Shown here: in pieces, positions 806 through 61,744 of the stretch | Position numbering within the stretch: the first letter of the stretch is position 1 | Layout: the number at the start of each line of letters is the position of its first letter | Source of the DNA: Candidatus Micrarchaeota archaeon | Lineage (GTDB): Archaea; Micrarchaeota; Micrarchaeia; Micrarchaeales; CABMGC01 | Direction of reading: 5' to 3' | Assembly: GCA_021796225.1 (NCBI GenBank) | Contig: JAJYOL010000001.1 | Span: forward strand, 3,471-67,470 | Length of the DNA: 64,000 nt | Notes under the pieces: model-generated | Database searches by the model: none | Seen by the model: only the letters and a program-made list of their open reading frames with translations | Told to the model about the DNA's origin: nothing | Program-made: the position numbers and the translations under genes

Positions 806-1717
806 ATGGTTTCCAGTAAAAGAAAAACCATGCACAGGCTACAGTCCGCGATGGAATACCTCATGACCTACGGATGGGCGATATTAGTCATAGCGGTTGT
901 TCTAGGCGTTCTCTATTCCCTCGGGATATTCAGTCCTTCGAACTTCGCGCCGAAGGCTTCTCCGGGATCATGCCAAGTTTTCAGACCAAATGGGCCCGGG
1001 ACGGGTTATGACGTTAATCTGGAAGGGACGTGCAGTGGCGAACTGCCGGAGTATGTGGCACAGTTTATTCAAGGTAAAAATTCATGGATTGAACACACTT
1101 CCTCAGTACTTCCTAATGGCACTAGTAACGCCACCATAATGGCATGGATAAATCCGGAAGTACTTCAAGGTGGCGGATCATATTCCGGGATTGCCAGAAT
1201 AGATGGTGAAAGTTCAATACAAGGGAGTGGTCTCCTTTTGTCCATACAGAATGGTAGTGGGAGGCCTTCAATGGCTACATGGTCCAACGATTATGTTCCT
1301 TCAACTGGACCTAGTGTAAATTATAATTCATGGAATTTCATTGCTGTAACGGTAAATAACAAAATCGTTACTTTATACTTGAATAATCTGTCCGAAACTG
1401 GTACACTCGCTGTGCCGATGTCACTAAAGCAAAATGGGGCTATCAAAAATTTTGCAATAGGTTCTACTGATGATCCAGGCAGGCTTTTTTATGGCTCAAT
1501 CGCAAATGTACAAATTTACAATACCTCTCTCACAACAAATGATATTACTGCTCTTTATGACGAAGGAATAGGCGGTGCGCCAATCGACATCCAAAACCTT
1601 GTTGGGTGGTGGCCGCTCAACGGAAATGCGAACGACTACAGCGGAAACAACAATGACGGTGTGCCTACCAATGTCCTGTTCACCGGTTCGTGGCAGTCGG
1701 GATATACTGCTCCTTAA
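806..1717 (+). CDS. Class III signal peptide (type IV pilin-like) protein with LamG-like jellyroll, paralog 1
   Basis: N-terminus RLQ|SAMEYLMTYGWAILVIAVVLGV matches the archaeal prepilin signal and hydrophobic helix. Conserved Cys pair GSCQVF...EGTCSGELPEY. LamG_3-like motifs AQF.G..S.I ... ANVQIYN.SL...I.ALY. C-terminal WWPLNGNANDYSGNNNDG motif. The true start may be a downstream Met (MHRLQ...). Confidence 0.8.
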   Translation: MVSSKRKTMHRLQSAMEYLMTYGWAILVIAVVLGVLYSLGIFSPSNFAPKASPGSCQVFRPNGPGTGYDVNLEGTCSGELPEYVAQFIQGKNSWIEHTSSVLPNGTSNATIMAWINPEVLQGGGSYSGIARIDGESSIQGSGLLLSIQNGSGRPSMATWSNDYVPSTGPSVNYNSWNFIAVTVNNKIVTLYLNNLSETGTLAVPMSLKQNGAIKNFAIGSTDDPGRLFYGSIANVQIYNTSLTTNDITALYDEGIGGAPIDIQNLVGWWPLNGNANDYSGNNNDGVPTNVLFTGSWQSGYTAP

Positions 1718-15152: not shown

Positions 15153-16040
15153 ATGAAGATCATGAAAGTGCGTGTATTACGTTTCAAAAGCAATACCTTA
15201 ACCAAACTCCAATCGGCAATGGAGTATCTGATGACTTACGGGTGGGCAATACTAGTCATTGCGGTTGTTCTAGGCGTTCTCTATTCCCTCGGGATATTCA
15301 GTCCTTCAAACTTCGCACCTAAGGCGTCTCCTGGTTCATGTCAGATATTTCGACCGAATGGTCCTGGAACGAATTACGATATAAATCTCGAAGGAACGTG
15401 CAGCGGCGAACTGCCGGAATATACCGCTCAGTTTAACGGTGCCAGCGCTTACATATCGTTGTCTTCCTCCGCTCCATCAAAAAGCTATACGCAACTAAGT
15501 GTTTCCGCATGGGTTACTAAACCTGCAGACACGTCAAGAAATGAAATTCTGAATTTTTTCGGTTTTTATTTTAATGTGCAGCAAGGAAATGAAGCATGCC
15601 TTTACGTAAATAATATCAATACAGGATATTTGTGTTCAACTCCTTCCTTAATATCAGGATATAATTTCCTTACAGCAACACTAAACGGCAGTACCGAAAC
15701 CGTTTATGTGAACGGCAAGCTTTCCAATACTACAACTGTTTCAGGGACCGGATCTGGGGTTCTTGGGGGAACGGTTGGCGTATGTTCCTATTGCGGAAAT
15801 ACGGATTATTTCGACGGGCAAATAGCAAACATACAATTTTACAATGCCTCACTAAATCAGAACAGCATAACCGCCCTTTACGATGAAGGCATAGGCGGTG
15901 CACCTGTTGACATTCAGAATCTCGTAGACTGGTGGCCGCTGAACGGAAATGCGAACGACTACAGCGGAAACAACAATGACGGTGTACCTACCAATGTACT
16001 ATTCACTGGATCGTGGCAGTCAGGATATACGTCACCATGA
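15153..16040 (+). CDS. Class III signal peptide pilin-like protein with LamG-like jellyroll, paralog 2
   Basis: Same conserved N-terminus (KLQSAMEYLMTYGWAILVIAVVLGV...GSCQIFRPNGPGTNYDINLEGTCSGELPEY) and C-terminus (NLVDWWPLNGNANDYSGNNNDGVPTNVLFTGSWQSGYTSP). Variable core. Divergently transcribed from ksgA. Confidence 0.8.
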   Translation: MKIMKVRVLRFKSNTLTKLQSAMEYLMTYGWAILVIAVVLGVLYSLGIFSPSNFAPKASPGSCQIFRPNGPGTNYDINLEGTCSGELPEYTAQFNGASAYISLSSSAPSKSYTQLSVSAWVTKPADTSRNEILNFFGFYFNVQQGNEACLYVNNINTGYLCSTPSLISGYNFLTATLNGSTETVYVNGKLSNTTTVSGTGSGVLGGTVGVCSYCGNTDYFDGQIANIQFYNASLNQNSITALYDEGIGGAPVDIQNLVDWWPLNGNANDYSGNNNDGVPTNVLFTGSWQSGYTSP

Positions 16041-43800: not shown

Positions 43801-45597
43801 TTACGGATTTCTTTTGTATAAAACAGCCGTATTTGTATTATTCATATCATATGAATTGCCAAACTGTGTTTCCGATTGTGACAAGTTCGGCGAGAATACC
43901 ACATGCAGATTAGTACATGACAGTACTTTGTTATCATATGGTACGCTGTAAATCCCGATAATATAATTACCGGTAAGAGAACTGCAATTGTCGAAAATTG
44001 TCGAATAATTTACATTTACTTTATAATTTGCATAACTTTCAATGATCATCCAATAAAGGAAATTAAATGTATTTATGGATTGGTACACGGATGTGAATTC
44101 ATCTGGATTCAACGCCGGCTGTATCACGTCAGTTTTGTTCAGTCCTGAAACGATATATATCGTAGCATTCTTTGGCAGTGCGGCAATGGCCTTTGAAATT
44201 TGTGACCATCCGTCAGTTAAAATACCATTTTCCTGGTGAATGGCTCCCATCAAAAGAATGGCATTTGCTATCAATAACATATATCCAAATATTATGACCA
44301 TGAGTAAAGCTTTTGAGGATAATGGTATAGATTTTCGTCCTTTTTTGTGTTTTATTATTTCATTAAGGCCTTTGCTTATTGCTATCCCGATGATTATTGA
44401 CAACGGGGGAATCACTATAATCATGAATCTTGGAAGAAATAGCATATACCCGTTAAACGGCAGACTGTCCACCCCGAATGACATATAAGCGGACAACAGT
44501 AAAAACCATGCAATTGGGATTAAAGCGGCATATTGTTTTTGTTTGATTGAGAGAATTACCAGAAAAACAATGCTTATTATCATAGCGTATCCGAAAAATC
44601 CGATAATATTCGGATATACATTAAGTGAAAATTTGGAAAAATCTCCAAATTCGGAAACGAATGGCCAGAAGAACGGATAAGATACGTTATTGTATGCGTC
44701 GTGTAGCGGTAGCAATAGCGAAAGAAACGCACCGATTCCGGGTGTGCTGGAAGATATATATGTACCAGGTCTACCATTATTTTGAAAATGGGTAATGAAA
44801 TAAGCCATAGCATTCGACTGCAAAAGATAACCCAATGTGAATATCATTGCAACTGCCAAAACCATTCCTAAAAGAAACGCAAAGGACCGTATCAACTGGA
44901 CCTTATTCCTATTTTTTACAAATACGTATGTCAGATATGGTATTAGAAACATGAAAACTGTAAAATTCAACACGCTTCCCCCCAATATGCCTGTGAGCCC
45001 TATAAATCCGGACAACGCATAATATCCAATCTGCTTTTTTCTAATTCCCAGTAGAATTAAAAGTACTGCCAATGTTGCGAAGAATGCAACAGGCATGTTG
45101 TCCCCGGAAGCTGCGCCTTCGGCAGCAATCAAGGGCACAAAAATAAATGTACATGCCGAAATCAGACCTGCGAACGTGCCATCAAGAATTTTTGCGATAA
45201 AAAATATGCATATTATCGTTCCAATCAGGCAAATCATGCTAAACAGTCCTTCGGTAAAAAGACTGATTCCAAACAGCCTGAATAGCAATGCCTGCACTCC
45301 TGACAATATGTATTTGGTTAAGAAATTTGCATATATGGAATTGCTGAAACCGTGTGTTGTTATCTGATGTGAAAAATACAAATAATATACGTCATCCATT
45401 AAATCTAAGTACATACCCGGACCAAGAACGGTCTTTATGCTTAGATAAACGCCCAATACCGCAATAATCATCAGGGCAGGGATCCAGTATTTTTTTGTCA
45501 GACGCGTTTGTTTTATTTTTTCGACATTAACAATTGCGCGAACGTATACAGCCAAGGTAACAAGGAATTTTTTAATTATCAAATTAAGCTTTGACAT
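43801..45597 (-). CDS. GT-C fold glycosyltransferase (PMT/ArnT-like, GT39/GT83-like) polytopic membrane protein
   Basis: 598 aa, 12 or more TM helices plus C-terminal extracytoplasmic domain. No WWDYG (not AglB). Confidence 0.55.
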   Translation of the reverse strand: MSKLNLIIKKFLVTLAVYVRAIVNVEKIKQTRLTKKYWIPALMIIAVLGVYLSIKTVLGPGMYLDLMDDVYYLYFSHQITTHGFSNSIYANFLTKYILSGVQALLFRLFGISLFTEGLFSMICLIGTIICIFFIAKILDGTFAGLISACTFIFVPLIAAEGAASGDNMPVAFFATLAVLLILLGIRKKQIGYYALSGFIGLTGILGGSVLNFTVFMFLIPYLTYVFVKNRNKVQLIRSFAFLLGMVLAVAMIFTLGYLLQSNAMAYFITHFQNNGRPGTYISSSTPGIGAFLSLLLPLHDAYNNVSYPFFWPFVSEFGDFSKFSLNVYPNIIGFFGYAMIISIVFLVILSIKQKQYAALIPIAWFLLLSAYMSFGVDSLPFNGYMLFLPRFMIIVIPPLSIIIGIAISKGLNEIIKHKKGRKSIPLSSKALLMVIIFGYMLLIANAILLMGAIHQENGILTDGWSQISKAIAALPKNATIYIVSGLNKTDVIQPALNPDEFTSVYQSINTFNFLYWMIIESYANYKVNVNYSTIFDNCSSLTGNYIIGIYSVPYDNKVLSCTNLHVVFSPNLSQSETQFGNSYDMNNTNTAVLYKRNP

Positions 45598-45654
45598 AAC
45601 TTATTGCCACACAAAACGTATTTATTAAATGGTTATTATCGCATTTATGATAAA

Positions 45655-46707
45655 TTATAACATATCAGACAATGATTTTTTGTACGGATGTCTTGCAATT
45701 CCCTTTTCGGTCACAATGGCGCTTACGAGATCCGGTGGTGTTATATCAAAAGCGGGATTCAACACGGGAACGTCGGGCACCGTGATTTGGAGTTTTCCAA
45801 GCACAGTTCGCACCTCATCGGGCTTTCGCATTTCTATCGGTATGCTGCTGCTCTTCGAATCCACCGTTGACATAGGCGCGGCGACATAAAACGGTATCTT
45901 ATGGTGATTTGCAAGCACCGCAAGCTGATACGTGCCTATCTTATTTGCAACCTGCCCATCCATGAGAATCCTGTCTGCGCCAAGGAAAATCTTCGTTATC
46001 CCTGCATTTTTCATGGCATATGCCGCCATATTGTCCGTTATCAGCGTGACCGGAACTCCGGCCTTCATGAATTCCCACACCGTGAGCCTTGCTCCTTGAT
46101 AAAGAGGGGCTGTGTAAGTCGCAATAACCTTGAAATCTTTTCCTTCCTCCCATGCCGAAAGGATGACCCCTGTTGAAGTGCCTATGCCTCCGCATGCAAG
46201 CGGCCCTGTGTTGCAATGCGTCAGTATGACATCGCCGTCCTGTATCAGGTCCTTTCCGTTCCTTCCCATGCGTATGCTGTCTTCCGTATTTTCCTTTTGT
46301 ATCGCAACTGCTTCCGCAAGTAGCCCTTTCTTTATCGCATCCACACTTCCGGAATTTTTTACAAGTTCCGCCGTTTTTTTGGACATGCGATCAAGAGCCC
46401 AGAACAGGTTAACTGCCGTAGGGCGCGTCTTTGCCAACCTTCCCCTGTCATTTTCGATGTGGCGTGCCATTTCATCAATGTCATTTCCATTGTAGTTGCT
46501 TGCCGAAAGTGCAATGCCGTAAGCTGCTGCAATTCCTATCACCGGAGCGCCGCGTATTTCCAACGTTTCTATTCCGCGCGCGAGTTCCTCTATTGACGAG
46601 CTTTTCTTCCATGTTTCCTCCCACGGGATTCTATTTTGCAGTATCCATTCGACTTTCTGATCGTTCCACCTGACAGGTTCCATGCTTTTTATCTCTCTGA
46701 TTGGCAT
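45655..46707 (-). CDS. eIF-2B alpha/beta/delta-like protein (MtnA / ribose-1,5-bisphosphate isomerase family)
   Basis: Family pattern includes GAPVIGIAAAYG and TGPLA. Start set at Met MPIREIK; the roughly 110 aa N-terminal extension on the ORF track was rejected. Confidence 0.75.
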   Translation of the reverse strand: MPIREIKSMEPVRWNDQKVEWILQNRIPWEETWKKSSSIEELARGIETLEIRGAPVIGIAAAYGIALSASNYNGNDIDEMARHIENDRGRLAKTRPTAVNLFWALDRMSKKTAELVKNSGSVDAIKKGLLAEAVAIQKENTEDSIRMGRNGKDLIQDGDVILTHCNTGPLACGGIGTSTGVILSAWEEGKDFKVIATYTAPLYQGARLTVWEFMKAGVPVTLITDNMAAYAMKNAGITKIFLGADRILMDGQVANKIGTYQLAVLANHHKIPFYVAAPMSTVDSKSSSIPIEMRKPDEVRTVLGKLQITVPDVPVLNPAFDITPPDLVSAIVTEKGIARHPYKKSLSDML

Positions 46708-46846
46708 AATCTCATCCGAAAACTCTACAAAATACAATCCGCAAAGCGCTATGGTAAATCCAGCATCTAATTTAGAACATCCTTTACGCATAAATAAACG
46801 CGTAGACAAACTTATTATTTGTATAATGGTATGTTGACTTGATGGT

Positions 46847-47485
46847 ATGATGGCAAAAGCGAACAAAAACAGTATGCTTGATGACATATACAGGATAATC
46901 TCATTCTCTGACAAGGTGATATACAAGACTTCATCGATAAGACGGTACAATACGACGCAGATAATACAGCAGCAATCCGTCCTAGAACACGAAGGAAGCG
47001 TCGCACTCATCGCCATGCTGATATCGGATTATCTGATTAAGAAAGGAGTGAAGCTTGACACCGAGAAAATAATGCGCATGGCAATCATACACGACCTCGA
47101 TGAAGCCATATACGGCGACATACCCTATGATGCAAAATACGAATTCGGAAAAACATCTGAAGAATTTCGCGCGGCCTTGGAGAACATGAAGATATTCACC
47201 CTTAAGATGATACTGAATACGATCGGGGACAGCACGCTTGCCAACAAGTATTTCGACCTTATGATGGAAGAGAAGGAAAAAGGAACGCTGGAAGCGAGGA
47301 TAGTAAAGCTTGCCGATTACATCGACGTGCTGATATTCATAAATCATGAATTGTCTCTCGGAAACAAAAGCGTTCTTGACATAAAGAAGAAGGCGGAGAA
47401 GAACATACACCAGCTTCTGCTAAAACTTGCCGAAAATGCCGGTCAAGGTGCCACCGGCAAGCCTGTTTTTAAACGTACCAAATAA
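46847..47485 (+). CDS. HD-domain phosphohydrolase (YfbR-like 5'-nucleotidase family)
   Basis: H..HDLDEAIYGDIP motif. Confidence 0.7.
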   Translation: MMAKANKNSMLDDIYRIISFSDKVIYKTSSIRRYNTTQIIQQQSVLEHEGSVALIAMLISDYLIKKGVKLDTEKIMRMAIIHDLDEAIYGDIPYDAKYEFGKTSEEFRAALENMKIFTLKMILNTIGDSTLANKYFDLMMEEKEKGTLEARIVKLADYIDVLIFINHELSLGNKSVLDIKKKAEKNIHQLLLKLAENAGQGATGKPVFKRTK

Positions 47486-47558
47486 ACAAGCTTTTATAGC
47501 AGTTTGCAAACTTTCACAGCGTTTAAATATCAGAAATTACCGCATTATTTCGGATTAC

Positions 47559-48398
47559 ATGAACATTTTCAAGAGTAGACCCGCAAAGGCAACGTTGTCA
47601 GAGCAAACAAGGAATTCTACGGTATCAAAGATTGCAGCCGGAGCAGCCCTTACAGCTGCGTTGGTGTTCGCATTTCCTCCTCACGCTGCATCAGCCGTGC
47701 CTGAAACGGAATCATATACCCCAGCAACAATCTCGGTATTGGATGTCGTGCCAAATCTGGAAAAAGGGCAGACCGTATTTGCAGGCATATCCGGCAACCA
47801 GTACAGCAAGCCCGGAGACGGTTATTCCCTGGAATTCGTTTCTACAAAGAAGGAGAGCATAATCTTCAAGGTATATACAAATCCCGATCTTTCAGAAAAC
47901 GCTCCGAATGGACATCTGATGGGTGAGGCAAGCTTAAAACTCGGCCATACTGTAAACATAACTCCTTCATATTGGAAATATGTTAAGAGCTCAGATGCGA
48001 TGCCTCCTGCAGGATCGCTCTCTATATCCTTCACCGGAGTTAAGATGCACAATGGCGTTCCCGGCGCAGTTCTTGTTTTCGGCTACACCGCTCCTGAAGT
48101 CAAGCTTCCTATTCTTAACGAAGGCGTTCCTGTGAAAAAAGGCACGAACAGCGAAATAATATTTTTCGGTACAAGCAAACACTTAAAGGAAGCAATAGTC
48201 GCAGCACACGACGTTACCCAGTCAACCGGCAAGTTTGTCATACTCAGCCTTGCGGTAACCGGTGAAAACGGCACGTCTGCCGGGCAATCCCAAACGGTAA
48301 CCGTGCCTGGAAGAATGACGGGGATATTCCCTACTGAAGGATCAGGCGTGTCTGTATATGTTGGAAATCCCGAACTTGACATTCTTGTCCGCAACTGA
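47559..48398 (+). CDS. Secreted protein with N-terminal signal/anchor
   Basis: Start assigned at MNIFKSRPAKA..., upstream of a hydrophobic segment AAGAALTAALVFAF. Confidence 0.45.
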   Translation: MNIFKSRPAKATLSEQTRNSTVSKIAAGAALTAALVFAFPPHAASAVPETESYTPATISVLDVVPNLEKGQTVFAGISGNQYSKPGDGYSLEFVSTKKESIIFKVYTNPDLSENAPNGHLMGEASLKLGHTVNITPSYWKYVKSSDAMPPAGSLSISFTGVKMHNGVPGAVLVFGYTAPEVKLPILNEGVPVKKGTNSEIIFFGTSKHLKEAIVAAHDVTQSTGKFVILSLAVTGENGTSAGQSQTVTVPGRMTGIFPTEGSGVSVYVGNPELDILVRN

Positions 48399-48436
48399 AC
48401 GTCTGCAAAATCCGCACAGCTGGAAACGGCATATTA

Positions 48437-49753
48437 TCAGGCCGGAGCTACGCTTTTAGCCTGCGGCTGCGGTTGTTCTGGTTTCTTAATGTTTCTTGAA
48501 GACAGGAAGACTCCTACTCCTGCAGCCACGTTTGAAAGAAGTATTATTATGAATATTAAATTTAGGAATCCCGGGATGTGTATTCCTAACGCTTCAGGCA
48601 ATGTTGCTACTATCGCGGGGGACAATCCTCGCGGAACGTTGAAAGATACCAGCCTCCTGACTCCTGTCTTGTCGTCTTGCATGTATTTTTTAAGTATGAG
48701 CGTGAAAACGCTGCGCAATATTATCATCAGTATTACCGCACCCACTCCTACTCCGAGCATCAGCAGGCTTATATTGTGCAAATCGAAAAGCATCCCGATG
48801 TAAACGAAGAAGAAAGTGCTCGTGAAGAACTCTATTTCACGCTGGTAATCCCTTATGTATTCTATATTCGTGAAGTGGAAGAATGCCTTTATTATCGCAT
48901 TGAATCCCTTTCTTATGCTGTCGCTTTCTTCCTTTTCGTTCTTTTTCTTATGCAATCTTATTGTTCCGAAATTCGAGAATATTATGCTGAATACGAATAC
49001 GGTTATGGCGCCGCTGTAGTTCAATTCCTGTGCTATTCCATAAGCCGCTATTACCATGCTTATCGTAAGCATCCATCCGTACGTCTTGCTGTATTTCTCG
49101 AACCTTTTCAGGACATAAAGCCAAAATATGGCGAATAACGATCCGAGCACCACGGAACCGATTATAACTTCACCGAGCAGTTCCGCCGCACCGTTTAAGG
49201 TTAAGGTTACCTGAGAATTTACGAGAATCCCAAGCAGCAATATCGGAACCGCAAGCTGCAGGGAATCGGACATCACGCTTTCGTATATCAGCGTCGTTTT
49301 GATATCCTCTCCGAGGTTCGCGACCTTCATGATCGAAGGGACTACCGCACTGCTCGGCCCGCTCAATGCGAACCCGAATATCAGCGCTTCTACTATGCTC
49401 CACTTGAATACGAAGAAAGCGACGCCGGCGAGTACAAATCCCGTAACTATGACAAGCAGCATGGTGAAAATCGTACCACGTACTATTATCTTGCGGAGCC
49501 TGTGTATGTTGATGTTCAATCCCACGTCAAAAAGAATGAACGATATTGCTATTGCGGTTATCAGCGGTGCAAGATTCGCAATCGTGCTGTTCGGTCCTCC
49601 ATTTACGATGCCGAGAACCGGTCCCGCAAGCAGTCCTATAAGCATGAGCGGAAGCATCTTGGTTATGTGTATCTTGTCGAACAGCGCATTTATTACGAAA
49701 CCGAGAAACGCTATGCCCGCTATGAATATGAACAGCAGATTAATGTTAATCAT
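48437..49753 (-). CDS. Monovalent cation:proton antiporter (Na+/H+ exchanger family)
   Basis: 438 aa, 12 or more TM; CPA-like pattern. Confidence 0.75.
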   Translation of the reverse strand: MININLLFIFIAGIAFLGFVINALFDKIHITKMLPLMLIGLLAGPVLGIVNGGPNSTIANLAPLITAIAISFILFDVGLNINIHRLRKIIVRGTIFTMLLVIVTGFVLAGVAFFVFKWSIVEALIFGFALSGPSSAVVPSIMKVANLGEDIKTTLIYESVMSDSLQLAVPILLLGILVNSQVTLTLNGAAELLGEVIIGSVVLGSLFAIFWLYVLKRFEKYSKTYGWMLTISMVIAAYGIAQELNYSGAITVFVFSIIFSNFGTIRLHKKKNEKEESDSIRKGFNAIIKAFFHFTNIEYIRDYQREIEFFTSTFFFVYIGMLFDLHNISLLMLGVGVGAVILMIILRSVFTLILKKYMQDDKTGVRRLVSFNVPRGLSPAIVATLPEALGIHIPGFLNLIFIIILLSNVAAGVGVFLSSRNIKKPEQPQPQAKSVAPA

Positions 49754-49892
49754 TGACTTCAGATACTCTTTCTGTGCAAAATAATAAAAAGCACGCCTAT
49801 ACCTTCCTTATTGGCATCGTCTCTCTTTGTTGTTTGGTACAAAATATAAATTTTCCCAACGAGGTTAATTCAGCAAAGAGGCTTGTTGGCAA

Positions 49893-50783
49893 ATGTTACG
49901 GGGAAGAAGCACATCAAAAATCCAGAGCGCAATGGAGTATCTGATGACCTATGGTTGGGCCATACTCGTCATTGCCGTTGTCCTTGGAGTTCTCTATTCA
50001 CTCGGAATTTTCAGTCCTTCGAACTTTGCACCGAAGGCACAACCCGGATCGTGTCAGGTATTCCGCCCGAACGGCCCCGGCACAAGTTATGATGCGAATC
50101 TCGAAGGAACGTGCAGCGGCGAACTGCCTGAATACGTGGCAAATTTCAGCGGAAGGTCGTCAATATCAAACATTAACGTGAGTTACCTTAAAACAAACAA
50201 CGGAACGATAAGTTTGTGGTATAAAGGAACCGGCACAGGAAGACAATTCATTTGGTCAATGGGCACCGACGGCAGTGCAAACGATATGGATTTGATATCG
50301 ACAAGCGGTACCGGCAGCAACGTTATTTTTTATTTTAGGGTTTTCAACGTTTCCGATGTTCAGTTCAATACTAACGTAAGAGTCGATCCGTATTCCCCTT
50401 CAACTTTTTACAATCTAGTTGCACAATGGACCAGCACAAATTCTATTTATTTGTACCTGAACGGCATCATGATTAGCGATAAAGGCGGCGTAGTATATCC
50501 GCAATCTTTCGGATGTCCTGAAAAGATCGGAGGATCCTGTAACGGCCAAGGGCTGATAGCAGACCTTGCAAACGTGCAGGAATACAATACTTCTTTATCA
50601 ACAAATGAAATACAGGCACTCTACCAGGAAGGAATAGGTGGTGCACCGATTAATCTGCAACATTTGGTGGCATGGTTCCCGCTCAACGGCAATCCGAATG
50701 ATTACTCTGGCAACAATAATGACGGTATACCTGTTAATGTAATCTATACTGGAACATGGCAAGGAGGGTATTCCGCACCATAG
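49893..50783 (+). CDS. Class III signal peptide pilin-like LamG protein, paralog 3 (first gene of the tandem triplet)
   Basis: Conserved N-terminus (SKIQSAMEYLMTYGWAILVIAVVLGV...) and C-terminus (HLVAWFPLNGNPNDYSGNNNDGIPVNVIYTGTWQGGYSAP). Confidence 0.8.
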   Translation: MLRGRSTSKIQSAMEYLMTYGWAILVIAVVLGVLYSLGIFSPSNFAPKAQPGSCQVFRPNGPGTSYDANLEGTCSGELPEYVANFSGRSSISNINVSYLKTNNGTISLWYKGTGTGRQFIWSMGTDGSANDMDLISTSGTGSNVIFYFRVFNVSDVQFNTNVRVDPYSPSTFYNLVAQWTSTNSIYLYLNGIMISDKGGVVYPQSFGCPEKIGGSCNGQGLIADLANVQEYNTSLSTNEIQALYQEGIGGAPINLQHLVAWFPLNGNPNDYSGNNNDGIPVNVIYTGTWQGGYSAP

Positions 50784-50792
50784 GTAAGGCAC

Positions 50793-51677
50793 ATGAAATC
50801 AAAACTTCAATCCGCAATGGAATACCTCATGACCTATGGATGGGCAATACTCGTCATTGCGGTTGTCCTTGGCGTTCTTTATTCACTCGGAATATTCAGT
50901 CCTTCGAACTTTGCGCCGAAGGCACAGCCTGGAAGCTGCCAGGTCTTCAGACCTAACGGCCCTGGAACGAATTATGATATAAATCTTGAAGGCACGTGCA
51001 GCGGTGAACTGCCGCAGTATGTCGCACAGTTTGACGGGGCATCGAGTTATTTCAAAACTCTTGGATTTTCTACTATGCATCCAATAACATCATCATCTCA
51101 AATATCTATAGCGTTTTGGATGTACCTTACAGGTTACCCTCCAAACACACTTGACAATAATTTCATCCAAATCAAATCCGATGCGGGCGGTATAAGTTAT
51201 AGGATAGCATATAGCGTTGCAGGAAACGGAGCATGTGCGAAAAATACAGGAATATGGGTTCAAATATGCTCAAGCAACGCCATTCCGTTGAATAACTGGA
51301 CGGAGATAGTATACGCTTATAATGCACTCTCAATGCAAATATATTTTAATGGTAAATATTCTGACGGAGGAAATTGGACAGCAATAAATAACAACTCAGG
51401 AAGCATGTATTTTTTTGTCCCTGATTTTGCAACTGGTTATCAGATCCCTCCTTATCGTATTGCCAATGTCCAAATTTACAACACGTCACTATCCGCAAAT
51501 GATATTTCCGCACTGTATCAGTCAGGCATCGGGGGATCTCCTATCCATATACAAAATTTGATTGCATGGTATCCATTAAATGGAAACACAAACGATTATT
51601 CTGGTAATAATGAGGAAGGGTTTCCAGTTAACATGATGTATGTCGGTACATGGCAAGGAGGGTATTCCGCACCATAG
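50793..51677 (+). CDS. Class III signal peptide pilin-like LamG protein, paralog 4
   Basis: Conserved termini; core AQFDGASSYF...AFWMY...NVQIYNTSLSANDISALY (LamG_3-like). Confidence 0.8.
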   Translation: MKSKLQSAMEYLMTYGWAILVIAVVLGVLYSLGIFSPSNFAPKAQPGSCQVFRPNGPGTNYDINLEGTCSGELPQYVAQFDGASSYFKTLGFSTMHPITSSSQISIAFWMYLTGYPPNTLDNNFIQIKSDAGGISYRIAYSVAGNGACAKNTGIWVQICSSNAIPLNNWTEIVYAYNALSMQIYFNGKYSDGGNWTAINNNSGSMYFFVPDFATGYQIPPYRIANVQIYNTSLSANDISALYQSGIGGSPIHIQNLIAWYPLNGNTNDYSGNNEEGFPVNMMYVGTWQGGYSAP

Positions 51678-51686
51678 GTAAGGCAC

Positions 51687-52526
51687 ATGAAATCAAAACT
51701 TCAATCCGCAATGGAATATCTCATGACATATGGATGGGCTATACTAGTCATTGCGGTTGTTCTAGGTGTTTTGTACTCGCTAGGAATTTTTAGTCCGTCA
51801 AACTTCGCACCGAAGGCACAGCCTGGAAGCTGTCAAGTATTCAGACCGAACGGCCCTGGAACGAATTACGATATAAATCTTGAAGGAACGTGCAGCGGCG
51901 AACTGCCTGAATATGCTGCGCAATTCGATGGCAAATCAAGTTACATAAATGCCGGCGAGAGTTCGCTGCTGCAATCGAATACTTTTACTATAACGGCATG
52001 GGTAAATCCCGCAACGCTCGATTTAAGCGGAAATGCCATAACCGGCAGCTCTTCTCCAAGCGGCGTCGAGTTCAGACTGGCAAATTCCGGGGGGAAATTA
52101 TACCTGCAAGCACTCAAGGAAGACATAACTGGAATAGGGACATCTACAGGATACGTATCTGCAGGCACTTGGAGTTTTGTCGCAGTAACATACAATTCAA
52201 GTGCAAATGGTGCTTATGCCTATTACGTAAATGGGGCAAATGCAGGTTCCGGAAACAACTTGCAAACTTTCTCATGGAGCAGCCAATACATAGGAAAACA
52301 ATCAAGCAACACGGAATACTTCAACGGCATGCTCTCAAATGTGCAAATATACAACGTTTCGTTATCGGGAAATGATGTTGCCGCTTTGTACGCCGAAGGC
52401 ATAGGGGGAACACCTACAGATTTACGGCACATATGCGGCTGGTGGCCGCTGAACGGAAATGCGAACGATTACAGCGGAAACAACAACGACGGCATACCAA
52501 CTAACATTATTTACAAAAATACCTAG
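51687..52526 (+). CDS. Class III signal peptide pilin-like LamG protein, paralog 5, 3'-truncated by IS insertion
   Basis: Ends ...NDGIPTNIIYKNT* and lacks the conserved TG(S/T)WQ(S/G)GY(S/T)AP tail. A remnant of the tail sequence is found after the IS right end, at about 54352..54380. Confidence 0.75.
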   Translation: MKSKLQSAMEYLMTYGWAILVIAVVLGVLYSLGIFSPSNFAPKAQPGSCQVFRPNGPGTNYDINLEGTCSGELPEYAAQFDGKSSYINAGESSLLQSNTFTITAWVNPATLDLSGNAITGSSSPSGVEFRLANSGGKLYLQALKEDITGIGTSTGYVSAGTWSFVAVTYNSSANGAYAYYVNGANAGSGNNLQTFSWSSQYIGKQSSNTEYFNGMLSNVQIYNVSLSGNDVAALYAEGIGGTPTDLRHICGWWPLNGNANDYSGNNNDGIPTNIIYKNT

Positions 52527-52632
52527 CAGAAAGCCCACGATTTCCAATCGTGGGATGAATGCGAATGTCTTGAAATTTGATAGAAACATATCTATATAAA
52601 TTAGAAGGGATATACAGTATCTAAGAATTAAT

Positions 52633-53025
52633 ATGGGATACAAACATAAGCGAACAAGTGTGGCAATGGTAAACTACCACATAGTATTCTGTCCGAAATA
52701 TAGGAGAAAGTTATTGGTAGGTGGCATAAAGAAAAGGCTTGAAGAGGTTATGTTTGATGTCGCACTTGAAAATGGGTGGAAGATTATTTCAAAAGAGGTC
52801 ATGCCAGATCACGTCCATCTATTCGTCTCTGCTGATGTAAGGTCAAGACCAGAGATAGTAGTCAAGAGATTCAAAGGCAGAAGTTCAAGGTATCTGCGCA
52901 ATGAGTTTCCAGAGCTCTTGAAGATGCCAACATTGTGGACTCGCTCATACTTTCTTTCAACCGCAGGAAATGTGTCCGCTGCGACAATCAAGAAATATAT
53001 AGAACAACAATGGGATAAAGTATGA
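52633..53025 (+). CDS. tnpA: IS200-type Y1 HUH transposase TnpA
   Basis: 130 aa; HUH motif HVHLFV; catalytic Tyr region TLWTRSYF. Confidence 0.85.
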   Translation: MGYKHKRTSVAMVNYHIVFCPKYRRKLLVGGIKKRLEEVMFDVALENGWKIISKEVMPDHVHLFVSADVRSRPEIVVKRFKGRSSRYLRNEFPELLKMPTLWTRSYFLSTAGNVSAATIKKYIEQQWDKV

Positions 53026-53038
53026 AACAAAAACGTTA

Positions 53039-53260
53039 ATGGTCTTGGGCATAATCTCAATACTTTTGGATTTGATAATCTCTATCAGTAGTGCCATTTC
53101 CTACTTTAACAGAGCGTGCAGCTGTCCTGCTGAAATTGTAGGGCAACCTCCAATACCTTGTTGCACAGACCCGTCTGCAATCTATCTTATATATTTTGGC
53201 ATAGCCCTTGTAGTAATTGGTCTGATTGCAATAACGGTAAAATGGTTTTATAAAAAGTGA
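53039..53260 (+). CDS. Small hydrophobic ORF between tnpA and tnpB (possibly spurious)
   Basis: 73 aa, Cys-containing hydrophobic peptide. Confidence 0.25.
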   Translation: MVLGIISILLDLIISISSAISYFNRACSCPAEIVGQPPIPCCTDPSAIYLIYFGIALVVIGLIAITVKWFYKK

Positions 53261-53261
53261 T

Positions 53262-54284
53262 ATGATGATTCTAACCTTCAAAATAAAACACGAAAGAAAT
53301 TTCTCCCCTGAGTTAGGAAAGGCAAGAAAGATTGCGGAGTATGTCTTGACACACAAAACAAGGTCTTCTAAGGATGTAAAACAATTCGGTCTAAAATCCG
53401 CAATCGCAAATCAGATACTCAGGAAATATGGAAACAACGAAACAATCAAGAATGTCAATAAGATAAAACTGACTGTTCCTTCTCAGTCGGTCAACGCAAA
53501 CAAAGAGCATAGGACAATAGAAATTCCGTGTCTAAAGTTCACCGCGCCATATAACTTCAGGAACGACTACGATAAGATAAACCAGATAGAACTGGACAAC
53601 GAATACGCCTATGTTTCAGTAAATGTAAAGGAAGAGCCACAAATAGTTCCTCAAACATGGATAGGCGTAGACAGAAACACAACAGGTCATATTGCAGTAG
53701 CAGGAAATCCAGAGACAGGGAAGATTCTGAAACTCGGAAAGGAGGCACTCCATATTCACAAGAAATACAGAAACATAAGAAGGAAGATGCAAAGAGAAGG
53801 AAAGTATAGCGTGGTAAAACGGATAAAGGACAGGGAATCAAGAATAATCAAGAACATAAACCACAACGTCTCAAAGGCAATAGTTGAGGCTGCAAAGGAA
53901 AATAATGCAGGGATAAAGTTGGAGAAACTGGAAGGCATAAGAAAAAACAGGAAGCACATAAGGAACTTCAACTACGGTCTGCATAGTTGGTCGTTCTACC
54001 AATTGCAGACGTTCATTGAATACAAAGCAAAATTATATGGAATACCTCTAACCTACGTGGAGCCTAAAAACACGTCCAAGGACTGTTCAAGGTGCGGAAA
54101 CGAAGGTATTAGAGATTCAAAAAAATTCGTGTGCCAGTCGTGTGGACACGTAGACCATGCCGACGCAAATGCATCGTTCAATATATCGCAGCGTCCTCCA
54201 ATTGGAGAAGGCAGAAGTCAATTGAATGCAGACAGGGATGCATTCAAGGGCAGCACTGATACGCCCCAAGGTGCAACTCTATGA
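53262..54284 (+). CDS. tnpB: IS605-family TnpB (RuvC-like nuclease with C-terminal zinc finger)
   Basis: RuvC-like motifs; zinc finger CSRCGN...CQSCGH; DADANASFNI. Confidence 0.85.
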   Translation: MMILTFKIKHERNFSPELGKARKIAEYVLTHKTRSSKDVKQFGLKSAIANQILRKYGNNETIKNVNKIKLTVPSQSVNANKEHRTIEIPCLKFTAPYNFRNDYDKINQIELDNEYAYVSVNVKEEPQIVPQTWIGVDRNTTGHIAVAGNPETGKILKLGKEALHIHKKYRNIRRKMQREGKYSVVKRIKDRESRIIKNINHNVSKAIVEAAKENNAGIKLEKLEGIRKNRKHIRNFNYGLHSWSFYQLQTFIEYKAKLYGIPLTYVEPKNTSKDCSRCGNEGIRDSKKFVCQSCGHVDHADANASFNISQRPPIGEGRSQLNADRDAFKGSTDTPQGATL

Positions 54285-54352
54285 ACGCAGAGACACCAAA
54301 CCAAAGAGGAACCCCACGAATTTATTCGTGGGAGGATGTCAGACTGCTTCAT
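54285..54352 (+). ncRNA. Putative omegaRNA/right-end RNA of the IS605 element (hairpin plus GGGAGGATGTCAGACT)
   Basis: Same architecture as the 3' flank of the solo tnpB at 3960..4010. Confidence 0.45.
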
Positions 54353-54477
54353 GGGCTTCAACGTATAGCGCTCCTTGAAAGTTGCATTTTAACGAAATTC
54401 TGTCAATAAAGCGTATAAATGCACTCATTTAAATACCACCTCGGTCATAATATGTATCGACCACAGAGGGTTCGAAT

Positions 54478-54681
54478 ATGAACGACAAGTATACGGAACT
54501 TGAACAACAGCTGACGGTGACTGATGCACAGCAGGAGAATCCTGAGATTGCACAGATGCCCTCAAAATTTTCATATCCGAATCCCACTGGTGGCAATAAA
54601 GGCGGCGGGGCATCCAACCCTCTTAATCTGAGAATATTCTCGGCAAGGGACCCGGGGCTCAAGACCGCACTGCGCAAGTAA
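54478..54681 (+). CDS. Small hypothetical protein (low complexity)
   Basis: 67 aa ORF with an upstream purine-rich stretch; uncertain. Confidence 0.25.
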   Translation: MNDKYTELEQQLTVTDAQQENPEIAQMPSKFSYPNPTGGNKGGGASNPLNLRIFSARDPGLKTALRK

Positions 54682-54765
54682 CCTCTGGATTCTTCGCGGC
54701 TAATATGAATAAAGACCCAGCGTCAGCACGCAAAGCTTAAAATCCTTTAATTCGCAAGCAGAAGT

Positions 54766-55674
54766 ATGTCCGCAAAACAATACGTCTGGTTCGACGGCAA
54801 GTTCATCGATTACTCTAAGGCCAACGTGCACATTCTTACGCATTCGCTCCAATACGGAACTGGCATGTTCGAGGGAATACGCGGATACAAGACCGAACGC
54901 GGCACTGCAATATTCAGATTAAAGGATCATGCAAGGCGCTTCATGCGCACGGCGAAGATACTCGGAATGCCTCTCGGCATAACTCAAAAGGAGTTCGAGC
55001 ATGCCGTAATATCCACGGTTAAGAAAAACAAGCTCAGCGACTGCTATATACGGCCGTTTGCATTCTATAACAATTCGCACATAGGTCTCGGAGTATCCGG
55101 GAAGAAGGTAAGCGTCGCAATTGCGGCAATGCCGTTCGGAAGCTATTTCGAGGACAGGAACAAGGGGATAACGTGCAAGATCTCTTCATGGAACAGGATA
55201 TCTTCAAACATACTGCCTCCTGAAGCCAAGGCCAGCGGAAACTATGCCAATTCGGTGCTCGCTTCGGAGGAAGCGAAGGCTGCGGGTGCCGAAGAGGCCA
55301 TCCTCACGACAGCGGGTGGATACGTCGCAGAAGGACCGGGTGAAAACATCATGCTTGTCGAAGACGGCAAGATAATAACGCCTTCCAAGGAATCGGATAT
55401 ACTTCTCGGGATAACCCGTGCATCACTTATCGATCTGGCTGAAGAATTGGGGATTGTCGTCGAAGAAAGGCTCGTCCACAAGGAAGAGCTGTTCACATGC
55501 GACGAATTGTTCTTCTGCGGCACAGCCGCTGAAGTAACGCCGATAATATCTGTGGATTCGAGAGCCGTCGGAAGCGGAAAACAAGGACCGATTACAAAAT
55601 TGCTCTCGGATAAGTTCTTCGCTATTGCACGGGGGCAGGTTCCTACTTATACGAAGTGGCTGACCTATCCCTGA
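54766..55674 (+). CDS. ilvE: Branched-chain amino acid aminotransferase
   Basis: Class IV aminotransferase pattern (FEGIRGY, EAKAAGAEEAIL, FFCGTAAEVTPI). Confidence 0.85.
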   Translation: MSAKQYVWFDGKFIDYSKANVHILTHSLQYGTGMFEGIRGYKTERGTAIFRLKDHARRFMRTAKILGMPLGITQKEFEHAVISTVKKNKLSDCYIRPFAFYNNSHIGLGVSGKKVSVAIAAMPFGSYFEDRNKGITCKISSWNRISSNILPPEAKASGNYANSVLASEEAKAAGAEEAILTTAGGYVAEGPGENIMLVEDGKIITPSKESDILLGITRASLIDLAEELGIVVEERLVHKEELFTCDELFFCGTAAEVTPIISVDSRAVGSGKQGPITKLLSDKFFAIARGQVPTYTKWLTYP

Positions 55675-55687
55675 CCGTTAAAAAGAA

Positions 55688-56044
55688 TTACAGCAGCTTC
55701 AATGACGACGTAAACGCGTCTATCTCGCTGTTTTTCCAAGGGCCGATGCCAAGCGCCGTGACGGTGCCAGGCGGCAATTCCGTAAGCCCGGCGTCTGTAA
55801 CAAGCGCGCACGGCACGTTCTTGAATTTGAATGCATCATTCAGTTTCCTGAGCGAAATTTCGTTTTCTACCTTCAGCACTATTTTCTTCTCTCCAGCGGC
55901 AAGCCACTTTTTAACGACTTCCTTGTCTGTCTTTTCCGCTTCGAAATAGCTCATCAAAGAAGCGTGTGCGACCTGTGCGGCAAGCTTGCCCTTGCCCATA
56001 TCCAAGTCATTTCTTACTACTATTACCTGCTTGATCTCGTCCAT
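55688..56044 (-). CDS. pth2: Peptidyl-tRNA hydrolase Pth2 (archaeal type)
   Basis: VVRNDLDMGKGKLAAQVAHAS signature. Confidence 0.85.
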   Translation of the reverse strand: MDEIKQVIVVRNDLDMGKGKLAAQVAHASLMSYFEAEKTDKEVVKKWLAAGEKKIVLKVENEISLRKLNDAFKFKNVPCALVTDAGLTELPPGTVTALGIGPWKNSEIDAFTSSLKLL

Positions 56045-56379
56045 GATCTTCACCGAAGCTTCTTACCGAGACTATTGAATACGCATCTTTAAATATGCGT
56101 GCGCCCTTTCCCGTTCGAAAGGGAAGGATTTTAACCCTATTATAATATACTATAATATTAATATGGGGATGAACGCGGGAAAATCATTGCCCGTGCGAAG
56201 CTCCGTTCCAAGCGGTAAACATGGATGTTAGACACTTGCCGTATATGCGGCAAAAGTGCTTTGTCGTCGGTAACACCCTGCTTTTTGACGAAGAAATACG
56301 TCATTTCGAGAAGTCGTTTCTAACGTCTGACGAATATATACCACAAATATACAAATTAAAAATTAAACAAAACGCAGTG

Positions 56380-56387
56380 TTTAAATA
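56380..56387 (+). promoter_or_regulatory. Putative TATA box (TTTAAATA) of the S-layer-like gene
   Basis: AT-rich element about 45 nt upstream of ATG 56432. Inverted repeats (ACGCAT..ATGCGT, CCCTTTC..GAAAGGG) lie further upstream at about 56085..56135. Confidence 0.3.
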
Positions 56388-56431
56388 CTTTACACCTAAG
56401 ATGTATTCACAAAAAAATGTTAAGTGATAGA

Positions 56432-59611: not shown

Positions 59612-61744
59612 ATGCCTAAGCACATGCGCAAACGCGCGCATACATACGTCAAAGACGCTTCAGCTAAAAGCAGGAGGCATAATCACACATTCGCCCAGGC
59701 AGCAATAGAATATCTTACCACTTACGGCTGGGCAATCCTAATTATAGCAATTGTCATATCCCTCATGTATGCTTTCGTTTTCGCACCTTCATTCGTAGTG
59801 CCGCAGAAATGTACTTTCGGATCGGGCGCATACTGCAACGACGTAATTCTCGGTACTGCGACAAACACGTCAAAAATGGTTTTGTTGCTTTCGAATTCGC
59901 GGCAATACGCCTTAAATAATCCGGGAATTATCTTATCTATAGAGAATGTAGGAAACGTTACCGGGACTTGTTATCCTTCATACGTGCTTCCTGGAGGCAC
60001 GATGGTGTGCAATGCCACAATACCTGCAGGATATTCTGCAGGATCTATAGTATCGTCTGAAATGTATCTGAGCGGAACAACTTGCACGTCAAATTCCAAT
60101 TTGTGTACCTCAAATCCATTACAGGTCTTTTCGGGTTCCGTTGTTGCGCATTCGCAGCCCATCCTCGCATCAGAACCAGTATCGATATCACTGTATGCCG
60201 CAAATCTGACTCCTGCGATAAATTCCGGCCAGACCATGGTAACAGCAACCGTTACGCTTCTCGGTTATCCTCTTCCAGGTGCAACTGTAAACTTCACCGA
60301 AAACGCAGGCACGAATTTCACGCTTACCCCTTCACAATCAACCACTAACACGAACGGAAAAGCTGTCAGTTACCTGTCGAGTACGAAGACGGGTCCTGTC
60401 ACCGTAAACGCGACATTTGCAGGACATACTTCGTCAGTAACGCTCACGTATCAGTTGCAGAAGTACTACACAACCCAGGAATATACTACAACCGGTTCCG
60501 GTTCGGGAAACGGCACATATACGACGCAGCAATACGCCGTGTTGTGCCAGCCTACCGTTTCATTCTCCGGATTAACAACCATTACCGTTACGTGGTGCGG
60601 CGGAACTCCTCCCTATACTGTTACACTGTATTCCGGTTCGTCTCCAAATTGCGCGCTTGATACAAATGTCGTCGCAGTAAACACAGGGGTTACCACAACG
60701 TCAACATCATTTTCAATATCTACAGGAAGTGCATATTACTGTGCCACCGTTACGGATTCATCTTCATCACAACAGAGTGAAGGCTCCGGTTCTGGCGTGT
60801 CTTCAACTACATCCATTGCGACCGTAGTCACAAACGCTGCAACCAACGCTGCAACCAATGCGGCAACGAATGCAGCCACGACAATCACAAACGCTGCAAC
60901 CAATGCGGCAACGACAATTACAAACGCGGCAACGAACGCAGCAACCAATGCCGCAACAAATGCCGCAACCAGCGGTGCAACTGGGAAGGAAGGGACATGC
61001 ACATATTCAACACCTGTGGCAATTGTCGGATGTGTTTCAGGACCTTATAACTCTACCGAAGAAACATTCCTCCCATGCTCTTGCCTTGGATCCGGTGGAA
61101 CGTGTCAACCTCCATCCTATTCTGTAGGGTATGGTTATTCCGGAACCTACGAAGCCTGCGTGTATCCTTCGACTTCAACAACTGTTGCAACCATTATCAC
61201 CAATGCGGCGACGAATGCAGCAACCAATGCCGCAACCAACGCGGCTACCCATACAACGAACGCGGCTACCCATACAACGAACGCGGCTACTCATTCTACT
61301 AACGCAGCAACTCATACAACGAACGCAGCTTCAGTCAGTGGCGGAGGATCTGTATACGGAAGCACGATGATACTGCTCGCAAACGGGACGTACATACCTG
61401 CAAAGAATGTACAAGTCGGATCTATTTTGGAATCTTATAATTTCGTGCTAAACGAAACGGCACCTTCGGCTGTCATATACGTAACAACTACCATGGTGAA
61501 CAACACCTATGTGATAAACGGAAACCTTTCAGTAGATGCAGACGAAATAATATTCCTCAACGGTGCGTGGAACAGGGCATTCAATGCGAAGGTCGGCGAC
61601 GTGCTTTATGATCCTGTGACAAACAGCAACGTAACCATATACAATATATCCGTGAAGAACACTGGCGGAATCGTGTATGATTTCTATCTGGCTCCGAACA
61701 ACAATTTCGTTGCCGCAGGCTATCTCATAGATGCGAAAGTATAA
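59612..61744 (+). CDS. Pilin-like (class III signal peptide) surface protein with TNAA tandem repeats, Cys-rich module and degenerate C-terminal Hint-like domain
   Basis: N-terminus HTFAQ|AAIEYLTTYGWAILIIAIV, analogous to the pilin paralogs. Two blocks of 12-nt repeats encoding (TNAA)n. C-terminal roughly 130 aa matches the Hint block A pattern (S/T-MILLANGTYIPAKNVQVGSIL) and the terminal YDFYLAPNNNFVAAGYLID. It lacks the Cys nucleophile and the TxxH motif. Confidence 0.6.
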   Translation: MPKHMRKRAHTYVKDASAKSRRHNHTFAQAAIEYLTTYGWAILIIAIVISLMYAFVFAPSFVVPQKCTFGSGAYCNDVILGTATNTSKMVLLLSNSRQYALNNPGIILSIENVGNVTGTCYPSYVLPGGTMVCNATIPAGYSAGSIVSSEMYLSGTTCTSNSNLCTSNPLQVFSGSVVAHSQPILASEPVSISLYAANLTPAINSGQTMVTATVTLLGYPLPGATVNFTENAGTNFTLTPSQSTTNTNGKAVSYLSSTKTGPVTVNATFAGHTSSVTLTYQLQKYYTTQEYTTTGSGSGNGTYTTQQYAVLCQPTVSFSGLTTITVTWCGGTPPYTVTLYSGSSPNCALDTNVVAVNTGVTTTSTSFSISTGSAYYCATVTDSSSSQQSEGSGSGVSSTTSIATVVTNAATNAATNAATNAATTITNAATNAATTITNAATNAATNAATNAATSGATGKEGTCTYSTPVAIVGCVSGPYNSTEETFLPCSCLGSGGTCQPPSYSVGYGYSGTYEACVYPSTSTTVATIITNAATNAATNAATNAATHTTNAATHTTNAATHSTNAATHTTNAASVSGGGSVYGSTMILLANGTYIPAKNVQVGSILESYNFVLNETAPSAVIYVTTTMVNNTYVINGNLSVDADEIIFLNGAWNRAFNAKVGDVLYDPVTNSNVTIYNISVKNTGGIVYDFYLAPNNNFVAAGYLIDAKV
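60829..60969 (+). repeat. 12-nt coding tandem repeat (ACn AAy GCn GCn = TNAA), block 1
   Basis: Direct inspection. About 11 to 12 units with synonymous variation and TTIT interruptions. Confidence 0.8.
61196..61330 (+). repeat. 12-nt coding tandem repeat (TNAA / THTTNAA), block 2
   Basis: Direct inspection. Units ACCAATGCGGCG..., then a 21-nt superunit ACC CAT ACA ACG AAC GCG GCT repeated 4 times. Confidence 0.8.

Follow-up and report, generated by a model that had tools for sequence, protein, structure and literature searches.

In our study, a 64-kb window of a Candidatus Micrarchaeota archaeon (assembly GCA_021796225.1; the window is the whole stretch of 64,000 nucleotides analysed) was found to contain five paralogous genes, here named p1 to p5, whose products carry a LamG-like core between a pilin-like N-terminal module (N-module) and a conserved C-terminal module (C-module). 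These proteins probably represent a family of modular, pilin-like surface lectins of the Micrarchaeota whose ancient heads are shuffled by recombination. The exchange is homologous, has its anchors in the conserved modules on either side, and carries whole cores from one gene copy or strain to another.

Modular structure of the five paralogs

An earlier reading of the same DNA, made from its letters and open reading frames (the sequence-only reading), had proposed five paralogs, and all of them were found as open reading frames (ORFs) on the plus strand. The genes and the parts of p1 were as follows.

806..1717, plus strand: p1, 303 amino acids (aa), LamG_3 match at E=1.3e-17, AlphaFold2 model
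about 842-1066, plus strand: N-module of p1
1060-1603, plus strand: replaceable core cassette of p1
from 1604, plus strand: identical 3' anchor of p1
15153..16040, plus strand: p2, 295 aa, LamG_3 match at E=4.6e-13, upstream open frame reaching 15090
49893..50783, plus strand: p3, first gene of a triplet, without a Pfam match
50793..51677, plus strand: p4, second gene of the triplet, 9 nucleotides (nt) past the p3 stop, LamG_3 match at E=9.9e-14
51687..52526, plus strand: p5, third gene of the triplet, LamG_3 match at E=5.3e-25, 3' end truncated by an insertion sequence (IS)

The database protein corresponding to p1 (P0001) started at M9, which is position 830. All five genes were co-oriented, and p3, p4 and p5 formed a head-to-tail triplet with 9-nt spacers. 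Because of these short spacers, and because an AT-rich, TATA-like element, as judged from the sequence, was present only upstream of p3 (about 45 nt), the triplet is probably one transcription unit. The neighbours of the paralogs in the window were housekeeping genes, encoding fibrillarin, KsgA, PRPP synthase, an Na/H exchanger and IlvE. The five paralogs matched one another in tblastn of the 64-kb window with E values of 1e-75 to 1e-94. The same search found no further full or partial copy and no silent cassettes beyond p1 to p5; the only additional match was to a 710-aa protein (59612-61744, described below), in its signal and helix.

The protein alignment contained a nearly invariant N-terminal block, from QSAMEYLMTYGW to ELPEY, then a barely alignable middle, and conservation returned at IANVQIYN and lasted to the C-terminus. 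The N-module comprised a pilin-like signal, a hydrophobic helix and a two-Cys hairpin. Mean protein identity was 95% in the N-module, 68% in the C-module (about 90% between p1 and p2) and about 18% in the core, in agreement with the near-identical N-module, shared C-module and divergent core that had been described from the letters. At the nucleotide level, identity in 15-codon windows ranged from 70 to 96% over the N-module, fell to 20-50% over the core and rose again in the C-module, where it peaked at 98% between p1 and p2 in one window.

The Laminin_G_3 (LamG_3) domain, PF13385, was detected in four of the five copies (p1, p2, p4, and p5) with scores of 50-89 bits against a cut-off of 27.6. 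The p3 protein remained below the Pfam threshold for PF13385, though it was clearly homologous to the other four. For p1, an AlphaFold2 model computed from an alignment of 119 sequences had a mean predicted local distance difference test (pLDDT) score of 79.5 and a predicted template modelling score (pTM) of 0.74, with pLDDT values of 80-97 in the core. The model contained, in order, a confidently predicted helix at residues 15-39, a low-confidence hairpin with two invariant Cys residues and a confidently predicted jellyroll, after which came a short helix and three strands at the C-terminus. Foldseek comparison of this model with the PDB returned the LamG domain of PAPP-A, pentraxins and the LNS domains of neurexins, with probability 1.0 and E values down to 1e-10, and the family profile matched LamG-type PDB structures also at the sequence level. 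The jellyroll, the helix and the PF13385 matches bear out the suggestion of a LamG-like core joined to a pilin-like helix. The putative binding-site residues varied from core to core.

The conserved tail LVGWWPLNGNANDYSGNNNxG in the C-modules (for example at 1595-1717) resembles what we take to be the LamG_3 segment that normally precedes the FDG strand. We speculate that the tail is either the first LamG_3 strand, moved by circular permutation, or a remnant of a second LamG unit. The permutation idea found only a non-significant sub-alignment to residues 23-34 of 4qvs, before the main domain. A permuted p5 sequence gave no PDB match by phmmer, and the multi-LamG proteins of one related locus (L048) were uninformative on this point.

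Homologs of the family fell into more than 3000 database clusters. The named ones belonged to Candidatus Micrarchaeaceae or Micrarchaeota and were annotated, for example, as 'LamG-like jellyroll fold domain-containing protein [Candidatus Micrarchaeaceae archaeon]'; the organism is therefore a DPANN archaeon, a possibility that the sequence-only reading had raised. Among the GTDB species representatives, a scan confirmed at least 567 matches, nearly all of them in metagenome-assembled genomes (MAGs) of Micrarchaeota. Fetching of 77 related loci (labelled L below) yielded 125 full-length members, among which tandem arrays of 2-7 genes were common, with seven genes each in L015 and L064. At least seven members were present on the window's own 152.7-kb contig. 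The LamG-pilin-like family is phylum-wide in Micrarchaeota and is often arranged in tandem.

Exchange of whole cores

In the assembly GCA_027371795.1, a family member (protein P0014) was found directly after fibrillarin, which is the position of p1. Positions 1-1059 of the window differed from this assembly only at 892, 916, and 925 (99.7% identity), each time synonymously and in a third codon position. No similarity was detectable over 1060-1555; the segment 1556-1603 was semi-conserved with 10 mismatches, and 1604-1744 was 100% identical up to the end of the contig. At the p5 locus the same assembly matched the window at 99.99% over 9,863 nt, including the p5 core and the inserted IS. Genomes as close as these two are near-clonal, and still their cores at the p1 locus are unrelated. 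The breakpoints of this swap coincided with the module borders, where tracts of DNA-level identity were also located. A p1-type core was found at a further locus (P0010), which did not adjoin fibrillarin. Exact-protein look-ups of p4, P0001, P0070, P0026, and P0032 gave no match.

A second case was found in a different species, in L055 (JAJZAJ, Micrarchaeota FK5.bin94, 1513-3316), where two adjacent genes shared 651 nt at 99.85% identity. This stretch took in the last part of the N-module together with core and tail, whereas the helices of the two proteins were only about 65% identical. Among cross-genome pairs with related cores, the N-module was nearer to that of own-genome paralogs with unrelated cores than to that of the core ortholog in 24 of the 32 pairs. 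The replacement at the p1 locus, the L055 pair and this discordance together demonstrate that the history of the N-module is not that of the core, and the cassette exchange supposed in the sequence-only reading does occur.

The cores were found to be old. In the DAHWXM genome, one gene (locus L004) matched the p3 core at 63% identity and another matched the p2 core at 55%, and the p1 core was 55-60% identical to eight metagenomic proteins. For the ortholog pairs of the p2 and p3 cores, the rate of nonsynonymous substitution (dN) was 0.26-0.32 at a saturated rate of synonymous substitution (dS), which corresponds to dN/dS below about 0.13. Since orthologs of different species remain 55-63% identical at low dN/dS, the cores are ancient, individually constrained types under purifying selection and are not hypermutating. 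The supposed diversification of ligand-binding loops was thus contradicted by the conservation of the core orthologs.

Selection and conversion in the termini

The likeness of the termini had been attributed to gene conversion. In the N-modules of p1 to p5, the Nei-Gojobori method gave proportions of synonymous differences (pS) of 0.56-0.77, dS of at least 1 and dN/dS of 0.02-0.07, and the synonymous sites of the C-modules were equally saturated. The identity of synonymous codons at identical residues was 0.49 within genomes, 0.39 between genomes and 0.53 in the N-modules of the window. Since dS is saturated, dN/dS is low and synonymous identity is only modestly above the level between genomes, purifying selection at the protein level, rather than recent homogenisation, is the main cause of the likeness of the termini.

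Short gene-conversion tracts of 44-69 nt overlie these selected termini. A tract common to p1 and p2 in the helix, estimated earlier at about 55 nt, was confirmed but was perfect over 47 nt. In the C-module, p1, p2, and p5 agreed almost perfectly over some 44 nt at WWPLNGNANDYSGNNNDG, and p1 and p2 were identical at 96 of the 108 positions of 1610-1717, so that the near-identity noticed between distant loci was recovered. The junctions of the triplet contained the following repeat.

50756..50845, plus strand: junction repeat copy 1, end of p3, 9-nt spacer GTAAGGCAC, start of p4
51649..51740, plus strand: junction repeat copy 2, end of p4, spacer, start of p5

The two copies were identical at 88 of 92 positions, which agrees with the earlier estimate of about 95%, and a perfect 69-nt tract covered the last codons, the spacer and the first codons of the next gene. 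A GENECONV-style permutation test on runs of matching polymorphic sites was significant for the N-modules of p1 and p2 (p=0.0004) and for the C-modules of p1 and p2 (p=0.0024) and of p2 and p5 (p=0.0012). Conversion therefore stands as the source of short, significant tracts; as the general homogeniser of the termini it does not, the remainder being saturated and constrained.

Over long timescales the termini turn genome-specific. The N-module identity was 0.84 within genomes against 0.64 between them, and the core identity was 0.176 against 0.173. A scan of Joint Genome Institute (JGI) metagenomes with a 32-mer specific to the p1 locus gave no match. The same scan with a conserved 35-nt tract of the C-module returned one distant relative, a single match that is compatible with chance, and the tract is accordingly not broadly conserved as DNA.

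Signal sequence and pilus context

The N-terminus of the proteins was found to contain a short basic leader, followed by [K/R]-x and Q-S-A-M-E, with predicted cleavage before Q at +1 and with E at +5, and then by a hydrophobic helix of about 25 residues. We surveyed this signal in the 125 family members from related genomes and in 120 database homologs. The position -2 contained K or R in about 90% of the members, the position -1 contained S or A in about 60% and L or I in about 32%, and QSAMEY was invariant across the family.

T2SSE (PilB-type) ATPase genes were found directly beside family genes in L030, L035, and L055, at 136-1479 in L055, next to the gene pair with the common core. These candidates were obtained with a strict Walker-A regular expression, which gave one, and with BLAST from that one, which gave four. 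Small clusters that unite a T2SSE ATPase with a pilin-like and a LamG gene were found among housekeeping genes in two loci (L030, 4572-7360; L035, 8986-12175). No platform (TadC/PilC) gene was recognised near the T2SSE genes of L030, L035, and L055. In L030, L036, L038, and L044, LamG genes had small neighbours, encoding about 160 aa, in which the N-terminus and the Cys pair of the family recur; these neighbours are plausibly ordinary pilins. In 'Ca. Mancarchaeum acidiphilum' Mia14, some LamG genes are reported to be linked to type IV pilus loci, and two type IV pilus systems and one FlaK-like peptidase are present (PMC5498576). The neighbourhoods of T2SSE and small pilins in the related genomes agree with this linkage.

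We infer the following course. The proteins would be exported and then cleaved before Q at +1. The common helix would allow any paralog to use one type-IV-pilus-like system, in which the paralogs may co-assemble in filaments with the small pilins of the same N-terminus, or they may stay as membrane-anchored stalks. As one assembly system could thus accept different heads, a cell would display a panel of lectin heads, which might attach to glycans or proteins of the host surface.

Several observations weigh against a pilin-like surface lectin whose heads are reassorted. All five copies of the window contained L or I at -1, which is counted as atypical because the characterised archaeal prepilin peptidases require G, A or S at this position (PMC4371748). 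No Pfam pilin family matched the N-module (window 830-1075) at E <= 1, nor did any match the small pilin-like neighbour genes at this threshold, and NCBIfam gave only a weak TafC match over the LamG part. The Cys-hairpin region of the p1 model had a pLDDT of about 50. The sequence-only reading had proposed looking for pilus machinery, and no pilus ATPase, platform protein or prepilin peptidase was found among the scanned ORFs of the 64-kb window. The core swap between strains was directly observed once only. The genome-specific termini could result partly from co-adaptation to the assembly machinery and not from conversion, and both incorporation into a pilus and binding to a host are steps of the model that we infer.

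Some of these points suit a different role, namely surface lectins that are not filament subunits. In that case the N-terminus would serve as a membrane anchor or as a short stalk of the pseudopilus or bindosome type, comparable to the sugar-binding proteins of Sulfolobus, and the heads would serve glycan capture or organisation of the cell envelope; the findings on recombination would stay as they are. The non-canonical -1 residue in all window copies, the lack of pilin matches in Pfam and the dispersal of the genes among housekeeping genes without machinery in the window fit such a role, and at about 30 kDa the proteins would be large for major pilin subunits. On the other side, about 60% of the family contained the canonical [KR][AS] followed by Q, with E at +5, and T2SSE ATPases and small pilin-like genes adjoined family genes in several species. 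The helix was also near-identical within a genome, which co-assembly would predict and for which the PilA1-6 pilins of Haloferax are a precedent (PMC4371748). We regard the non-filament role as a serious minority possibility, to be ranked behind pilin-like lectins with reassorted heads.

A more far-reaching form of the latter reading may be considered tentatively, although we think it rather less likely to be true than not. In this form the family would be a host-range cassette system of Micrarchaeota at the population level, in which ancient LamG heads on a genome-specific pilin stem are reshuffled between loci and strains by homologous recombination at the conserved stem and tail. If so, near-clonal episymbionts would differ in the host surfaces to which they can attach, or in the pilus-binding viruses which they escape, and the system would be an archaeal analogue of the swaps of phage receptor-binding proteins or of shufflon adhesins.

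Other origins of the mosaic pattern

The mosaic pattern could also arise by birth and death of genes without exchange, that is by duplication, fast divergence of the cores and selection on the termini, with the mosaics due to chance or codon bias. The saturated synonymous sites of the termini, the small excess of synonymous-codon identity within genomes (0.49 against 0.39) and the occurrence of the 35-nt tract in a distant relative agree with it. However, it is contradicted by the different cores at the p1 locus of genomes that are otherwise 99.99% identical and by the L055 pair, in which 651 nt at 99.85% identity follow divergent helices. The persistence of core orthologs across species at low dN/dS, the discordance in 24 of 32 pairs and the significant permutation tests also speak against birth and death alone, which we consider improbable.

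It is very unlikely that the paralogs or the swapped core are artefacts of metagenome assembly, produced by chimeric joins across the repeated modules. Independent assemblies (MEGAHIT k141, Logan) did break inside the modules, at the ends of the contigs L001, L005, and L080 and at the starts of L079 and L083. The end of L001 lay 27 nt past the gene, so that 141 identical nt, precisely the value of k, follow the 3' breakpoint of the core swap. Breaks of this kind are expected at repeats or allelic bubbles, and the end of L001 at k fits an allelic bubble. We rejected the artefact since an independent ENA assembly reproduced 44766-61617, with the triplet and the IS, at 99.994%, and Logan contigs from SRR13170412 matched the window at 99.96-100%. 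The modules of the paralogs differed by 10-30% in DNA, and their perfect tracts of at most 69 nt were far below k=141, so assembly at this k should not collapse or chimerise them; the P0014 core also had p1-locus-specific sequence on both flanks. The breaks inside paralog genes imply that copy numbers and alleles of the family are systematically underestimated in MAGs.

A programmed antigenic or phase variation, with high-frequency switching of heads within a clone (of the pilE/pilS, shufflon or diversity-generating retroelement (DGR) type), is equally remote, in spite of the conserved flanks, the gene arrays, the perfect 69-nt junction repeat and the difference in core between near-clonal genomes. 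The silent-cassette model (pilE/pilS, vlsE) was rejected, as all five copies in the window were full-length with their own start codon and signal, and tblastn found no promoterless partial copies. A shufflon was rejected, as 49700-54500 lacked meaningful inverted repeats, the copies were co-oriented and the only recombinase at the locus was the TnpA transposase of an IS200/IS605 element. A DGR was rejected, as the scanned ORFs contained no reverse transcriptase and the cores differed almost everywhere (about 18% protein identity, 20-50% nucleotide identity), whereas DGR variation is specific to adenines.

Comparison with known systems

The sequence-only reading knew of no such arrangement among archaeal pilins, but there are precedents. 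An expansion of LamG proteins was reported in Mia14, where they were proposed to act in the interaction with host cells (Golyshina et al., 2017; PMC5498576). Proteins of the ConA/LamG type in Undinarchaeota are assigned to arCOG07813 (PMC7414124). The present family resembles these Micrarchaeota and DPANN proteins in having the same domain in multiple copies, of which some are linked to type IV pili, and Mia14 belongs to the same phylum. The pilin N-module with its Cys hairpin, the conserved tail, the genome-specific termini around ancient cores and the whole-core replacement between near-clonal strains are not mentioned in the consulted passages of either account (PMC5498576, PMC7414124).

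In Streptococcus sanguinis, a ConA-like lectin is carried on the pilin PilC (PMC9934059) and a von Willebrand factor A (vWA) domain on PilB (PMC8179133). PilC resembles the present proteins in its class III signal with Glu5, short pilin part and head of the ConA/LamG superfamily, and in the adhesion to partner glycans that is proposed. However, PilC is bacterial, single-copy, encoded within the pil operon and provided with an Ig-like linker, and it was shown experimentally to be present in pili and to bind glycans (PMC9934059). The proteins reported here are archaeal and multi-copy (five in the window, at least seven on the contig), dispersed or in tandem, with swapped cores, and for them a place in pili and binding to partner cells are predictions.

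In Haloferax volcanii, the H-domain is almost the same in all of the adhesion pilins PilA1-6 (Esquivel et al., 2013, reviewed in PMC4371748). As in p1 to p5, paralogs in one archaeal genome have a near-identical hydrophobic N-terminus and different C-terminal parts and are encoded away from the assembly genes, and PilA1-6 differ in their adhesive properties (PMC4371748). Unlike p1 to p5, they are small, lack lectin domains and have the canonical A or S at -1, and no cassette exchange is described for them. Recombination between conserved segments also varies the receptor-binding part of a type-IV-pilus protein in Neisseria, by gene conversion of pilE/pilS, and in the PilV shufflon tip adhesins of R64/TP114 (PMC9045228), and it changes the specificity for the partner cell. 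In contrast to these systems, silent promoterless cassettes, a site-specific recombinase and inverted repeats were absent from the present locus. Each copy is a complete gene, and the exchange takes place at the population or evolutionary level, which does not imply a programmed nature.

In our literature search, the stem-head-tail anatomy, the combination of ancient heads with genome-specific stems and the replacement of cores in near-clonal strains were not found described. Host recognition and attachment of DPANN episymbionts are largely unresolved, and LamG expansions have so far been noted without a mechanism. The LamG family of Micrarchaeota now gains an anatomy, consisting of a pilin-type stem, a lectin head and a tail, and an evolutionary mode, in which the heads are reassorted. 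As the p1 locus is polymorphic even between such close genomes, the heads are good candidates for host recognition, and these candidate adhesins become testable in the cultivated co-cultures of Micrarchaeum and Thermoplasmatales.

Other features of the window

The p5 gene was found to be interrupted by an insertion, and the following features were located around its 3' end.

52515..54342, plus strand: IS200/IS605-family element, recognised by Pfam and hairpins
52633-53025: tnpA (Y1_Tnp), within the element
53262-54284: tnpB, within the element
54343..54378, plus strand: displaced 3' end of p5, encoding TASWASTYSAP-stop, the original last 11 codons

The element was inserted after TTAC at 52514 and contained subterminal hairpins at both ends (z = -3.7 and -4.1). 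Because of this insertion p5 now stops at 52526; it ends with NIIYKNT-stop, and 11 residues have been replaced by KNT-stop. GCA_027371795.1 and an ENA assembly contained the identical insertion. Downstream of p1, at a distance of 1 kb, a second TnpB/OrfB_IS605 gene (416 aa) was located at 2709-3959, with no adjacent Y1 transposase seen.

The N-terminal signal of the family was also found on a larger protein.

59612..61744, plus strand: 710-aa protein, having in common with the family only the class-III-like signal and helix (AQAAIEYLTTYGWAILII)

Its cargo combined a Big_1 domain with repeats of the TNAA/THTTNAA type, which lay in two blocks (tandem repeats at 60830-60981 and 61199-61330). The gene adjoined those of a 991-aa S-layer protein (56417-59392) and of a 697-aa Asn/Ser-rich protein (61872-63965).

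Three tRNA genes (43212-43320, 27055-27197, and 7388-7485) were detected by Rfam and not by ARAGORN. With 98-143 nt they are long enough to imply introns, and the intron-containing tRNAs and fibrillarin are archaeal marks of the window. An RtcB ligase was encoded at 5820-7259. A gene of the glycoside hydrolase family 15 or trehalase-like type was present at 4040-5819 as two overlapping ORFs (4040-5116 and 4995-5819), and this split may represent a frameshift or a pseudogene.

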